Assembly (NCBI RefSeq): GCF_003334815.1 | Contig: NZ_QOWO01000038.1 | DNA length: 34,633 bases | Origin: Escherichia coli | GTDB taxonomy: Bacteria; Pseudomonadota; Gammaproteobacteria; Enterobacterales; Enterobacteriaceae | Reading direction: 5' to 3' (one strand) | Shown here: piece after piece, positions 1 through 20,000 of the stretch | How positions within the stretch are numbered: the stretch's first letter is position 1 | How the letters are laid out: every line of letters starts with the position of its first letter | Translations under genes and position numbers: made by a program | The notes under the pieces: generated by a model | What the model was told of the DNA's origin: nothing | Database searches by the model: none | The model's input: only the letters and a program-made list of their open reading frames with translations

Positions 1-168
1 TCGAAACGTACTCTCAACAGTTCGCTTAGGCATGGAAGTTTTGCGGCATTCTGGCTACACAATAACAAGGGAAGACTCACTCGTGGCTGCAACCCTGCTT
101 ACTCAAAATCTATTCACACATGGTTACGTTTTGGGGAAATTATGAGGGGATCTCTCAGTACTTTGTAA
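1..168 (+). CDS. 3' end of an upstream gene running into the window (partial; frame ambiguous)
   Basis: Frame 1 is open from the window edge to TAA at 166-168; frame 2 is open to TGA at 143-145. I cannot decide between them without the upstream sequence. A strong hairpin follows immediately. Confidence 0.25.
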   Translation, partial: SKRTLNSSLRHGSFAAFWLHNNKGRLTRGCNPAYSKSIHTWLRFGEIMRGSLSTL

Positions 169-199
169 CAAGCCGGTGCTTTACCCACCGGCTTGTTAC
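165..199. terminator. Perfect 14-bp inverted repeat (GTAACAAGCCGGTG / CACCGGCTTGTTAC) with 7-nt loop; candidate terminator or structured element
   Basis: Read directly from the sequence. No clear T-run follows on the + strand, so intrinsic-terminator function is uncertain. Confidence 0.4.
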
Positions 200-343
200 C
201 CTCTTAAACTATCCCACTAATAATCATGCTTACTTAAGTCAAATTAACCACACTTAGTTAAACAGCCATAAATCCCTAATAAAAATGTATAAATATGAAA
301 AACCATACGATATTCGCTGTCACCGAAAAATAATTACGATGGG

Positions 344-350
344 CTATACT
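344..350 (+). promoter_or_regulatory. Candidate sigma-S/sigma-70 -10 element (C-TATACT) upstream of dosC
   Basis: CTATACT at 344-350 has a C just upstream of the hexamer as in sigma-S promoters; about 160 nt upstream of the dosC start. No transcription-start data. Confidence 0.25.
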
Positions 351-510
351 CTTCTGAAGAACAGTAGCGTAGATTGAAACTGTCCTAAATCGCTTATTTC
401 TTTTCAGTATATCTTCATATTTCAGGAGAATATGGTGCAGTTAGTCGATCTCGCACGTTGCGTTTCATTTTGATTCCGTCTGATTTCCCAGCCTTATAAG
501 GGTGTGAATT

Positions 511-1893
511 ATGGAGATGTATTTTAAAAGAATGAAAGATGAGTGGACCGGACTTGTCGAACAGGCAGATCCGCCCATTCGTGCTAAAGCCGCGGAAATT
601 GCCGTTGCGCATGCTCATTATCTGAGTATCGAGTTTTATCGAATTGTCCGCATCGACCCGCATGCCGAAGAATTCTTGAGTAATGAACAAGTTGAGCGGC
701 AGTTGAAGAGTGCGATGGAACGCTGGATTATTAACGTGCTTTCTGCCCAGGTTGACGATGTCGAAAGGCTAATACAAATCCAGCATACCGTCGCGGAAGT
801 GCATGCCCGCATAGGAATTCCGGTAGAAATTGTCGAGATGGGGTTTCGGGTGCTGAAAAAAATCCTCTATCCGGTGATCTTCTCTTCGGATTATTCCGCC
901 GCAGAAAAACTTCAGGTCTACCATTTCTCGATTAACAGTATTGATATCGCGATGGAAGTGATGACTCGCGCGTTTACCTTTAGTGACAGTAGTGCCTCAA
1001 AGGAAGATGAAAACTATCGTATCTTCTCGTTACTGGAAAACGCCGAAGAAGAAAAAGAACGGCAAATAGCCTCAATACTTTCATGGGAAATAGATATTAT
1101 CTATAAAATCCTGCTGGATTCTGATTTAGGCAGTAGTTTGCCTTTAAGCCAGGCTGATTTTGGCCTGTGGTTTAACCATAAAGGTCGACATTATTTTAGT
1201 GGTATTGCCGAAGTAGGCCATATCTCCCGTCTGATTCAGGATTTCGACGGTATTTTCAATCAAACCATGCGTAACACCAGAAATTTGAATAACAGAAGTC
1301 TGCGGGTGAAATTTTTATTACAGATAAGAAATACCGTATCGCAAATTATTACCTTGCTGCGTGAATTGTTTGAAGAAGTATCGCGCCACGAAGTCGGTAT
1401 GGATGTACTGACGAAATTACTTAACCGCCGTTTCCTACCGACTATCTTCAAACGCGAAATTGCCCATGCCAACCGGACCGGTACACCGCTGTCAGTGCTG
1501 ATTATTGACGTTGATAAATTCAAAGAGATCAACGATACGTGGGGCCATAACACTGGTGATGAAATTCTGCGTAAAGTCTCTCAGGCCTTTTATGACAACG
1601 TCCGCAGTAGTGATTATGTTTTCCGCTACGGGGGCGATGAATTTATCATTGTTTTGACTGAAGCTTCTGAAAACGAAACGTTACGTACCCCAGAACGTAT
1701 TCGCAGTCGGGTGGAGAAAACCAAACTGAAAGCCGCAAACGGCGAAGATATTGCCCTCTCACTTTCCATCGGTGCCGCCATGTTTAATGGTCATCCTGAC
1801 TATGAGCGCCTCATTCAAATAGCCGATGAAGCTCTGTATATCGCCAAAAGACGAGGTAGAAACCGTGTTGAACTCTGGAAAGCCAGTCTTTAG
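511..1893 (+). CDS. dosC: Diguanylate cyclase with N-terminal globin-coupled oxygen sensor and C-terminal GGDEF domain
   Basis: 460-aa ORF; GGDEF signature (RYGGDEF) visible in the translation; sequence recognised as E. coli DosC (YddV). Confidence 0.95.
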   Translation: MEMYFKRMKDEWTGLVEQADPPIRAKAAEIAVAHAHYLSIEFYRIVRIDPHAEEFLSNEQVERQLKSAMERWIINVLSAQVDDVERLIQIQHTVAEVHARIGIPVEIVEMGFRVLKKILYPVIFSSDYSAAEKLQVYHFSINSIDIAMEVMTRAFTFSDSSASKEDENYRIFSLLENAEEEKERQIASILSWEIDIIYKILLDSDLGSSLPLSQADFGLWFNHKGRHYFSGIAEVGHISRLIQDFDGIFNQTMRNTRNLNNRSLRVKFLLQIRNTVSQIITLLRELFEEVSRHEVGMDVLTKLLNRRFLPTIFKREIAHANRTGTPLSVLIIDVDKFKEINDTWGHNTGDEILRKVSQAFYDNVRSSDYVFRYGGDEFIIVLTEASENETLRTPERIRSRVEKTKLKAANGEDIALSLSIGAAMFNGHPDYERLIQIADEALYIAKRRGRNRVELWKASL

Positions 1894-14967: not shown

Positions 14968-15252
14968 ATGAAAATGGCCAATCATCCCCGCCCGGGGGAC
15001 ATTATTCAGGAATCACTGGACGAACTTAATGTCAGCCTGCGCGAGTTTGCCAGAGCAATGGAAATTGCTCCCTCAACGGCAAGCCGATTGCTGACAGGAA
15101 AAGCAGCTTTGACGCCAGAAATGGCGATTAAACTTTCCGTGGTGATCGGCAGTTCGCCGCAAATGTGGCTGAATCTGCAAAACGCCTGGAGTCTGGCAGA
15201 GGCAGAAAAAACAGTGGATGTGTCGCGATTACGCCGTCTGGTTACGCAATAA
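14968..15252 (+). CDS. yddM: HigA-family antitoxin-like HTH (Xre-type) DNA-binding protein
   Basis: ORF-track frame 14890-15252; start placed at ATG 14968 ([17 protein letters not shown]...), 94 aa. Small HTH protein typical of HigA/VapI antitoxins; recognised as YddM. Confidence 0.8.
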
Positions 15253-15254
15253 AA

Positions 15255-15280
15255 AAATGGCACTTTATAAAGCGCCATTT
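15255..15280. terminator. Near-perfect palindrome AAATGGCACTTTA|TAAAGCGCCATTT; candidate bidirectional intrinsic terminator after yddM
   Basis: Begins 3 nt after the yddM stop; A-run before and T-run after the stem allow function on either strand. Confidence 0.55.
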
Positions 15281-15304
15281 AGAACTGATGACAAACGCAA
15301 CATT

Positions 15305-15410
15305 GCCTGATGCGCTACGCTTATCAGGCCTACACGTTCACTGCAATCTATTGGATTTGAAGGGTTTTCATGCCGGATAAGGCGTTCACGCCGCATCCGG
15401 CATGAACAAA
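15305..15410. repeat. BIME: two REP elements in inverted orientation
   Basis: GCCTGATGCGCTACGCTTATCAGGCCTAC (15305-15333) and TGCCGGATAAGGCGTTCACGCCGCATCCGGCA (15371-15402) match the REP consensus families. Confidence 0.75.
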
Positions 15411-15431
15411 GCCTACGTTGTCTACAATATG

Positions 15432-15459
15432 AAAATGGCGCCTTTTACAGCGCCATTTT
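15432..15459 (-). terminator. Rho-independent terminator after fdnI (bidirectional-type hairpin)
   Basis: 10-bp stem AAAATGGCGC / GCGCCATTTT with 8-nt loop, 22 nt past the fdnI stop; the A/T runs are part of the stem arms. Confidence 0.6.
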
Positions 15460-15480
15460 CAGCTTAAAGTTCAAAAGAGA

Positions 15481-17023: not shown

Positions 17024-20000
17024 TTACGCCTTCTCGATGTTGACTAAGAACGCTTTATATTCCGGCGTTTGCGAGTTTGCATCACCGACATTCGGCGTCA
17101 GAGTGTTAGCGATATAACCTTTACGCGCGACACCCTCAAAGCCCCAGTGGATTGGAATACCCACCGTTTCAACCTGCTGACCATTTACATTCAGCGGTTT
17201 CAGACGACGCGTTACCACAGCCACCGCGCGGATAAAGCCACGCTTGCTGGAGACAGTGACACGATCGCCATTATTAATGCCTTTCGCCGCCGCCAGCGTT
17301 TCGCTGATTTCCACAAACTGTTCCGGCTGAGCAATTGCGTTGAGCAATGCGTGCTTGGTCCAGGTGTGGAAGTGCTCGGTCAGACGATAGGTCGTACCCA
17401 CATACGGGAACTGCTCTTTTTTACCCATCCGCAGCGCGTCTTGTTCATACAGACGAACAACCGGGTTAGACACCACGTTCGGATGCAGCGGGTTAGTGCC
17501 CAGCGGCGTTTCAATCGGCTCGTAGTGTTCCGGGAACGGACCTTCCGCCATTTTGTTGATGGCAAACAGGCGTCCCATCCCTTCCGGCTGCATGATAAAC
17601 GGCCCGGTTGGCGTACCCGGTGCGGCATTGCCGAAGTCAGGAATATCGTTACCCGTCCACTTGCTGCCGTTCCACTGGATCAGCATCCGTTTCGGATCCC
17701 ACGGTTTACCGTTGATATCCGCCGAAGCACGGTTGTACAGCACGCGACGGTTGAGCGGCCACGCCCAGGCCCATCCCAGCGTATTCCCCAGACCGGACGG
17801 GTCGGAGTTATCGCGGTTAGCCATCTGGTTGCCCTGCTCTGTCCAGCTACCGGTGTAGATCCAGCAAGAAGATGCGGTTGTACCGTCATCACGCAGATGC
17901 GCAAAGCTACTCAGCAACTGACCTTTCTTCGCAATAAGCACGCCATTAGCGTCATAGAGATCTTCCAGCGCGTAGCCGTTGTTCTCTTTAGCCACTTCGT
18001 CAGATTGCGGTTCGTGCGGCTGCTTGTAGTTCCAGCTCATCTTCATCAGCGGTTCTACGCCTTTACCACCTTCGGACTGGTACAGCTCGCGCAGATGATG
18101 GTAGATACCCGCCAGAATTTCACCGTCGTTACGCGCTTCGCCCGGCGCGTCCTGACCTTTCCAGTGCCACTGCAACCAGCGACCGGAGTTAGCGATAGAA
18201 CCATCTTCTTCAGCAAAGCAGGTCGAAGGCAGACGGAATACTTCAGTCTGAATAGACGCCGGATCGACATCGTTCGACTCACCGTGGTTCTGCCAGAAGG
18301 TAGAGGTTTCAGTCACCAGCGGATCGATAACCACCATGTACTTCAGCTTGCTCAGGCAGCTCACCACTTTGTTTTTGTCCGGGAAGGACGCAACCGGGTT
18401 AAAGCCCTGGCAGAAATAACCGGTGACTTTGCCTTCATCCATCATGTTGAAATACTTGATGACGTCGTAGGTCTGGTCCCACTTCGGCAGCCAGTCATAG
18501 CCCCAGTTGTTCTCTTTCTGCGCGGCATCGCCATAGAAAGATTTCATCAGGCTAACGAAGAACTTCGGATAGTTGCTCCAGTAGTTCACCTGATCAGCCA
18601 GCGTCGCTTTCGGCGTGTTCGCTTCCAGATACGACTGCAAATCAACCTGTTTTTCTGACGGCAGCGTCAGATAACCTGGCAGGCTGGTAGAGAGCAGGCC
18701 TAAGTCAGTCAAGCCCTGAATGTTGGAGTGACCACGCAATGCGTTCACGCCGCCACCGGCCATACCCATGTTACCGAGCAGCAACTGGATCATCGCCATA
18801 GTACGGATGTTCTGCGCACCCACAGTGTGCTGCGTCCAGCCCAGCGCGTACAGGAAGGTGGTTGTGCGATCCGGTGCGCTGGTGGAGGCCAGCACTTCAC
18901 ACACTTTCAGGAAGTCGGCTTTTGGCGTACCGCAGATGTTTTCAACGACGTCCGGCGTGTAGCGGGAAACGTGCTCTTTCAGCAGGTTCCACACACAGCG
19001 CGGATGAGTCAGTGTTTCATCGCGTTTCGCATAGCCGTTTTCATCGAACTGATAGTTCCAGGACGATTTATCGTATTGACGTTTTTCAGCGTCGTAGCCG
19101 CTGAACAGACCGTCTTCGAAAGCAAAATCATCACGCACCAGCAGGCTGGCGTTGGTGTAATGCTTAACGTATTCGGCGTTGATTTTGTTGTTTTCGATCA
19201 GGTAGCGCAAAACGCCAGACAGGAACGTAATGTCCGTACCGGAACGAATAGGCGCGTAAATATCCGCCACAGAAGCGGTACGCGTAAAACGGGGATCGAC
19301 AACGATCAAGGTTGCGTCGTTGTTGTTTTTCGCTTCCATCGCCCAGCGGAAACCGACGGGATGCGCTTCAGCAGCGTTACCGCCCATCACCATCACGACG
19401 TTAGCGTTTTTGATATCCACCCAGTGGTTGGTCATCGCACCGCGACCAAATGTTGGAGCAAGACTTGCTACCGTTGGTCCGTGTCAGACGCGCGCCTGGT
19501 TGTCTACCGCCAGCATCCCGAGGGAGCGGGCAAATTTCTGGGTCAGCATCCCGGTTTCGTTGCTGGCACCGGAGGCACACAGCATACCGGTAGAAAGCCA
19601 ACGGTTTACCGTTACGCCCTGCTCGTTCTTTTCAATAAAGTTAGCGTCACGGTCAGCTTTCATCAGCTTCGCAATACGGGAGAATGCTTCTTCCCAGCTA
19701 ATGCGCTGCCATTTGTCAGAACCTGGCGCACGATATTCCGGGTAGCGCAGACGGTTTTCACTGTTGACGTAATCCAGCAAACCGGCCCCTTTCGGGCACA
19801 GCGCACCACGGCTTACCGGATGATCCGGGTCACCTTCAATGTGATAAATCGCTTCTCTGGCGTTTTTTGCGCCATCACCCAGGCTATACATCAATAGCCC
19901 GCAACCTACGGAACAGTATGTGCAGGTGTTACGGATCTCTTTAGCGCGTAATAATTTGTAGTTTCGCGCCTGAGCCAGTGCTTGCTTCGGGGCAAAGCCC

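Follow-up and report, generated by a model that had tools for sequence, protein, structure and literature searches.

The first 510 nucleotides of the window (the window being the whole stretch of 34,633 nucleotides of Escherichia coli DNA analysed here) very probably hold four unrelated and individually well-known things lying side by side: the inside end of an IS10 element, the hairpin of digH, a sigma-S-type promoter, and a leader of about 150 nucleotides that includes the small gene yddY (Table 1). In a K-12-like E. coli, a solo IS10 (ISVsa5) would have inserted between digH and dosC, 12 nt past the digH stop, with its transposase gene oriented toward dosC and its inside end making up positions 1-158; the window itself begins inside IS10, and the element would now part digH from its 3' hairpin. 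Further downstream, the resident promoter of yddY-dosC-dosP (-10 at 344-350) would fire at about 357-364, and the conserved part of yddY is its ribosome-binding site and start codon, not its peptide. The anatomy of the region, the conservation of its parts and their identities were observed directly in this analysis. For the dosCP operon, the promoter, the long 5' UTR and yddY have all been annotated or published before, and IS10 is a textbook element whose insertion here is a routine strain-specific event. An earlier note on this DNA is partly supported: its coordinates and its inference on promoter and leader length were right, whereas its gene context, its assignment of the hairpin and its picture of a non-coding leader were wrong or incomplete. 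The left edge of the window is mobile DNA, and a digH cut off from its 3' hairpin, together with an IS10 end facing the operon, calls for caution when the regulation of dosC is reasoned from this strain.

Table 1 Features at the left end of the window and the start of the dosCP operon.
Feature	Position	Strand	Basis or remark
IS10 (ISVsa5, IS4 family) transposase gene, 3' end	1-145	+	codons 356-402 at 2-142, stop TGA 143-145
IS10 inside-end terminal inverted repeat	136-158	-	CTGAGAGATCCCCTCATAATTTC read from the tip
Presumed 9-bp IS10 target site TACTTTGTA	159-167		chromosomal bases adjoining the IS10 tip; shares the first 3 nt of the hairpin
Perfect 14-bp stem with 7-nt loop	165-199	+	arms GTAACAAGCCGGTG (165-178) and CACCGGCTTGTTAC (186-199), loop CTTTACC (179-185)
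AT-rich region upstream of the promoter	200-343	+	~293-343 conserved within Escherichia; no good -35 hexamer; G291A compared to K-12
Sigma-S-type -10, C(-13) then TATACT	344-350	+	conservation
Transcription start zone of yddY-dosC-dosP	356-364	+	spacing from the -10 (356-358) and published UTR length (364)
dosC 5' leader, ~147-154 nt	357-510	+	published UTR length, BL21 spacing
yddY: SD AGGAG 424-428, ORF 432-473 (13 aa)	424-473	+	annotated b4746 in MG1655
Small palindrome/hairpin over the dosC Shine-Dalgarno (AAGGGTG, 498-504)	485-510	+	fold and inverted-repeat search
dosC (yddV), globin-coupled diguanylate cyclase	511-1893	+	ATG 511; dosP follows

The IS10 end and the hairpin of digH

When window 1-510 was searched by megablast against 5426 complete E. 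coli genomes, the query fell into two parts: 159-510 is the digH-dosC spacer found in essentially every genome (99.7% identity to the K-12 strains), and 1-165 was labelled 'IS4-like element ISVsa5 family transposase'. The whole query was covered in one complete genome, E. coli LCP30S3_I3 (locus L002), whose annotation places a 402-aa transposase between digH and dosC. Window 1-158 is identical to the last 158 bases of the ISVsa5 copy annotated there, whose same terminus adjoins chromosomal DNA, and the codons at 2-142 are identical to the C-terminus of its transposase (47/47 amino acids, residues 356-402). The full-length transposase of LCP30S3_I3 scored 402 bits against NCBIfam NF033591 (IS4 family transposase); the 47-codon fragment of the window on its own gave no family match in the profile search. 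The IS10 inside-end 26-mer CTGAGAGATCCCCTCATAATTTCCCC has an exact match at 133-158 on the minus strand (0 expected by chance), with a GATC Dam site at 149-152; the role of the Dam site in IS10 is established knowledge. Identity to K-12 resumes exactly at 159, at a point 12 nt past the digH stop. The exact inside-end match and the identity of the transposase C-terminus indicate that the incoming gene is the IS10 transposase and that the element ends at base 158. The earlier note had described an incoming gene ending before the hairpin, and an open reading frame entering from the left edge does stop at 143-145, 20 nt before the hairpin, but this gene is the IS10 transposase and not a resident neighbour.

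The 9-mer flanking the element agrees with the relaxed IS10 target consensus NRCNNNGYN, as quoted in PMC4574204, and is presumably the 9-bp target, the second copy of the duplication being expected beyond the start of the window, which begins inside IS10. The likeness to IS10/ISVsa5, the flanking element of Tn10, thus extends over the transposase C-terminus, the inside-end inverted repeat with its GATC and the target consensus; the differences are that the insertion site is new and that just 158 bp of the element lie inside the window. The only other IS10 in the digH-dosC spacer among the 5426 complete genomes is that of LCP30S3_I3 (L002 2829-4167), 17 bp further upstream and in the same orientation. 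It is independent of the insertion in the window and has its own target duplication, AGTTAAACT, which overlaps the digH stop codon; the spacer therefore has two IS10 hits within 17 bp in all (the window and 1/5426 complete genomes). A terminator-like hairpin was found at 143-157 (TGAGGGGATCTCTCA then GTACTTTGTA), the only terminator-like match of the scan in 1-700 and within chance expectation; the IS10 tip supplies the stem and chromosomal sequence the tail, so that this hairpin exists only through the insertion.

The hairpin at 165-199 was described in the earlier note as a perfect 14-bp stem, and it is found there well beyond chance: its arms are 100% complementary over 14 nt, and the RNA fold reaches -23.9 kcal/mol compared to -6.8 +/- 2.1 in dinucleotide shuffles (z = -8.3; 0/200 as stable). 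In genomes free of the element, the digH (yddW) stop lies 17 nt upstream of the hairpin (DH10B, stop 2987-2989 and hairpin from 3007 in locus L001; also MG1655), the native order in DH10B and MG1655 being digH stop, 17 nt, hairpin, promoter, yddY, dosC. Thirteen of the pairs are kept across the E. coli lineages and the four representatives of other Escherichia species, the GC core GCCGGTG/CACCGGC is invariant in the Escherichia alignment, the loop is variable (CTTTACC, CTTTAAG, CTTTAAA, ATGCAAG, CTTAA), and one pair is compensatory, with an A-U to G-C switch in four sequences. The G-U wobble cells of the alignment number 6 on the plus strand and 0 on the minus strand, indicating an RNA hairpin in the digH sense transcript. 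The alternatives of a DNA palindrome, a protein site or a REP element were rejected, as the hairpin is single-copy per genome and G-U-type substitutions occur on one strand only. Going by these sequence comparisons, the hairpin is a 3' stem-loop of the digH transcript, not of dosC. The earlier note had listed it under the long leader upstream of dosC; with about 160 nt between it and the transcription start further downstream, it stands upstream of the promoter and is not part of that leader.

The stem is followed by CCCTCTTAAAC on the plus strand and by AAAGTAC on the minus strand, with a U tract on neither; a U run 3' of the stem was absent in all the Escherichia sequences examined, and the terminator scan of 1-700 made no call at 165-199. 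The hairpin is a GC-rich stem-loop with the U run missing, and consequently it lacks one of the features that define an intrinsic terminator. The processed ends of Rho-terminated mRNAs are reportedly marked by stable 3' hairpins that have no U tract (Dar and Sorek 2018). The digH hairpin resembles them in its conserved GC-rich stem directly after the stop, its variable loop, its lack of a U tract and its sense-strand-compatible substitutions, and is assigned to them by analogy; we infer that its role is most likely that of a 3'-end protective or pause element after factor-dependent termination, rather than that of a classical intrinsic terminator. The literature search found no 3'-end mapping for digH, and dosC, yddW, digH and yddY are unmentioned in PMC4681348 and eLife 62438.

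Promoter and transcription start of yddY-dosC-dosP

The rpoS dependence of yddV-dos was reportedly described by Weber et al. in 2005 and by Sommerfeldt et al. in 2009. The sequence GCTATACT at 343-350 contains TATACT with a C at -13, as expected of a sigma-S-type -10, and the CTATACT that the earlier note had called sigma-S-like is present at 344-350. This 7-mer occurs once in the 34.6-kb window compared to 1.6 times expected, and at least once in 81/100 shuffles; the bare motif is thus at chance level, and its weight rests on conservation and not on occurrence. All 8 E. coli lineages have it unchanged, as do three of the four representatives of other Escherichia species (the fourth has GGACTATACT). 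The stretch ~293-390 hardly varies among the eight E. coli lineages; E. whittamii, E. albertii and two cryptic-clade representatives also show high conservation there and have the -10 motif 166-170 nt before the ATG. The block GATGGGCTATACTyTTCwGAAG is common to the Escherichia species and the Citrobacter amalonaticus group; in the latter it reads GATGG(G/A)CTATACTTTTCAGAAG and is located 257 nt before the ATG, and the sequence further upstream is unrelated to that of Escherichia. Such conservation of a block in two genera amid diverged surroundings is a good phylogenetic footprint of a promoter core. The sigma-70 consensus scan of 1-700 gave no promoter, and no -35 is recognisable.

The dosC 5' UTR is 147 nt long in BL21(DE3) according to tiling arrays (PMC5435950). 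The spacing from the motif to the ATG, and with it the length of the leader, is the same in BL21 as in the window, so the end of the 147-nt UTR corresponds to window position 364. The -10 predicts a start at about 357 (range 356-358), 154 nt before the dosC ATG at 511 and 7 nt apart from the tiling-array value; the exact start nucleotide we infer to lie among these positions. Both lengths agree with the 5' UTR of roughly 150 nt proposed in the earlier note, which had named a start far from 357 as evidence against its reading; the array value falls within 7 nt of it.

In a genomic SELEX study (PMC5493296), the RpoS holoenzyme alone gave a peak inside yddW and not in the spacer, and the RpoH holoenzyme gave a weak peak in the digH-dosC spacer; the assay used 200-300-bp fragments and no accessory factors. 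As the RpoS peak falls outside the spacer, sigma-S recognition of the dosC promoter without helper factors is not documented in PMC5493296. A reporter made from the region upstream of yddY was induced at low Mg2+ in a PhoQ-dependent manner (PMC11429745). Two PhoP-box matches with 2 mismatches, at 259-285 on the minus strand, were not accepted as PhoP sites: their position and orientation are atypical, and the count over the whole window (93 compared to 73 +/- 9) is near chance. With matches in the spacer no better than chance, the PhoQ effect may be indirect, for instance through sigma-S stabilisation.

Between 159 and 510 the window differs from MG1655 and DH10B at one position (G291A), with the same -10, yddY ORF (b4746) and dosC start and a UTR length that agrees with the 147 nt; the other difference from the K-12 yddY-dosC-dosP (yddV-dos) region is the IS10 end upstream of 159, which replaces the last 12 nt of the digH 3' flank. 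The G291A change, seen against K-12 and all 7 other aligned E. coli, lies about 65 nt upstream of the dosC start, where TATGAAT becomes TATAAAT and the match of a -10-like hexamer rises from 4/6 to 5/6; the site is not conserved in the other Escherichia species. At ~241-252 (alignment columns 152-163), non-K-12 E. coli have a 12-bp tandem duplication, AATTAACCACGC AATTAACCACAC, of which the K-12 lineages and the window have one copy.

That CTATACT is a chance match, with the true dosC promoter elsewhere in the spacer, is hardly credible: the frequency expected for the 7-mer, the missing -35 hexamer and the SELEX peak of the RpoS holoenzyme outside the spacer would speak for it, but the motif and its immediate flanks are conserved in two genera while the surroundings diverge, the distance to the ATG is within 7 nt of the published UTR length, and the sequence offers to the eye no alternative -10 suited to a start at 364. 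Position 1329 of IS10 is, by J01829 numbering, presumably its inside end. PMC4574204 describes a cat gene selected next to this position, there termed 'right end', and reports, from the OUTIIp and pIII papers, outward promoters at both IS10 ends. With its inside end and its transposase gene facing dosC, IS10 might have rewired dosCP, an outward promoter of the inside end or transposase read-through across the hairpin adding sigma-S-independent expression of yddY-dosCP. Against this, the native promoter is untouched and intact together with about 185 bp upstream of it, the IS10 tip is located 186 bp from the native -10 with the hairpin of -23.9 kcal/mol in between, 1-700 contains no consensus sigma-70 site, and the best candidate found by eye (TTCACA-N17-GAAATT at 113-141) agrees at 8/12 positions. 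One of the 5426 complete genomes has IS10 in the spacer, which gives no sign of recurrent selection. We regard such rewiring as improbable, and IS-driven expression of dosCP as unlikely to the same degree. The hairpin could also be a working part of dosC control, an insulator or attenuator which stops upstream transcription (from digH natively, from IS10 here) and leaves dosCP to its own sigma-S promoter. It is very stable and conserved, it separates the dosC promoter from the transcription unit upstream, and this function would be compatible with, and not exclusive of, a role at the digH 3' end; but a U tract is absent in every Escherichia species examined, the terminator scan is silent, the fixed place right after the digH stop suits an element of the digH 3' UTR, and the literature search found no data on digH-dosC read-through. 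We hold the insulator function to be unlikely, if worth keeping in mind, and prefer the reading of a digH 3' stem-loop followed by a separate sigma-S-type promoter.

The leader and the yddY open reading frame

The spacer is AT-rich, as the earlier note had it (GC 0.27-0.40 over 151-500 compared to 0.45-0.52 in dosC). The leader is indeed long and AT-rich, but it is not purely non-coding: the annotated small ORF yddY (b4746; MG1655 1567219-1567178), overlooked in the earlier note, corresponds to window 432-473, with the same ORF, position and SD, 37 nt before dosC. YddY was detected by chromosomal tagging (PMC6001520), and its abundance is at the low end (bioRxiv 511675).

The SD and ATG of yddY (TTCAGGAGAATATG) are invariant across Escherichia. 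In three loci of other Escherichia species (L010, L011, L012) the frame reads ATG GTG NNN TAA, and in E. albertii (L018) ATG ATG TAG, so that in these four loci (at ~1420-1440) the ORF has 2-3 codons; E. coli has TTA where the others read TAA. In some E. coli, a 5-bp deletion frameshifts the C-terminus of YddY and gives a 20-aa product, and no part of the leader varies more than codons 3-10. A protein with a function of its own would be expected to keep its sequence in related species, but YddY was not found to do so. The SD and ATG kept throughout and the early stop elsewhere indicate that E. coli alone has extended a conserved mini-ORF into the 13-aa peptide. A small new point, read from these alignments, is that the 13-aa YddY would have arisen in E. 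coli by loss of the stop after 2-3 codons; the peptide looks evolutionarily young and the start site old, a hint that the site, and not the peptide, is the functional unit.

The folded leader is not distinctive. The minimum free energies have z-scores of -1.4 (357-510) and -2.0 (357-540), and Rfam at a permissive threshold gave nothing better than E = 0.18 in 1-700; the matches to rli61 (E = 0.18) and to a CRISPR-DR model (E = 0.31) were discarded as sub-threshold noise, both seeded by the hairpin at 165-199. In the RNAalifold consensus, 406-424 pairs with 505-523 in a long-range helix that takes in the dosC start codon; the covariation term is +2.17 kcal/mol, a penalty and not a bonus. There is no covariation, and in L010, L012 and E. 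albertii pairs of the helix are lost to uncompensated substitutions. The duplex between the leader and the start region exceeds that of shuffled leaders in E. coli (z = -2.4, p ~0.02) and in E. whittamii (z = -3.5), and is no better than shuffles in the remaining 17 orthologous leaders. The anti-start-codon helix was rejected as a conserved element: it reaches nominal significance in just E. coli and E. whittamii, is missing from E. albertii, L012, Citrobacter, Enterobacter and Trabulsiella, and shows no compensatory changes. The aligned sequences, judged by reading and not by computation, suggest that other Escherichia species appear able to form the hairpin over the dosC SD in a shifted register; hairpins of this kind over an SD are commonplace.

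The earlier note had suggested post-transcriptional control through the leader, with structure prediction as a check, and the folding results lend this no support. A structured riboregulator of dosC translation (a riboswitch, a thermosensor or an sRNA target), acting for example via helix 406-424 x 505-523, has accordingly a slim chance of being right: the helix proposed by RNAalifold, the duplex above shuffles in two species and the small hairpin over the dosC SD point towards it, but they are set against the lack of an Rfam match, the whole-leader z-scores, the covariation penalty, the pairs broken without compensation in L010, L012 and L018, and the 17 other orthologous leaders in which the duplex does not exceed shuffles. 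The leader might be used through ribosome loading instead. Very short upstream ORFs, 'start-stop' sites and leader ORFs such as mgtL occur in bacterial leaders, and yddY is like them in its strong SD and ATG kept in a long leader, in its 2-3 codons in four Escherichia representatives and in its unconstrained peptide; it differs from them in that the E. coli ORF has 13 codons with a detectable product. The invariant SD-ATG could be an ancestral mini-ORF of 2-3 codons, lengthened in E. coli by the change from TAA to TTA, in which what matters is ribosome loading, and not the peptide; loading could tune dosCP output if it opened the 406-424 x 505-523 helix at the dosC start codon, or if it kept Rho off the C-rich stretch 470-495. 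We consider this regulatory role of yddY doubtful; if true, mini-ORF loading would link the O2/c-di-GMP module to sigma-S and to low-Mg2+ status.

dosC, dosP and the rest of the window

Compared with MG1655, the remainder of the window has about 10 SNPs, a 1-bp deletion and one difference in repeat length, indicating that the strain is K-12-like and not K-12 itself. One of the changes, G-to-C at 1690, converts Ala394 of DosC into Pro (TAERIR to TPERIR) in the GGDEF domain, and could impair or alter the cyclase activity in this strain. There was no significant enrichment of SNPs at dosC (of the roughly 10 SNPs relative to MG1655, 2 lie within the first 3.5 kb of 34.5 kb), so no case can be made for selection at the dosC locus.

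In E. coli PAR and DFK.1 (L008, L009) most of dosC is deleted, and the promoter, leader and yddY start are fused (from ~465 onward) to a 3' remnant of dosC before dosP; dosP may still be driven by this promoter in these strains without its cyclase partner. The genomes of Trabulsiella odontotermitis and T. guamensis (L025-L028, L034) have two or three diverged full-length dosC homologues each, with 59-63% identity and unrelated upstream regions. A 398-bp contig assigned to Oceanospirillum linum (NZ_MTSD02000211.1, L035, coverage 0.9) encodes DosC residues 1-79 with 100% identity to E. coli, and is almost certainly E. coli contamination in the O. linum assembly.

At ~15247-15460, in the fdnI-yddM spacer, the window is about 179 bp shorter than MG1655 within a locally repeated segment; the spacer of BL21(DE3) is short too, and the difference is probably variation in repeat copy number. 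The Rfam SECIS_3 match at 19431-19489 on the minus strand (84 bits) is the selenocysteine insertion element of fdnG, expected and ordinary.
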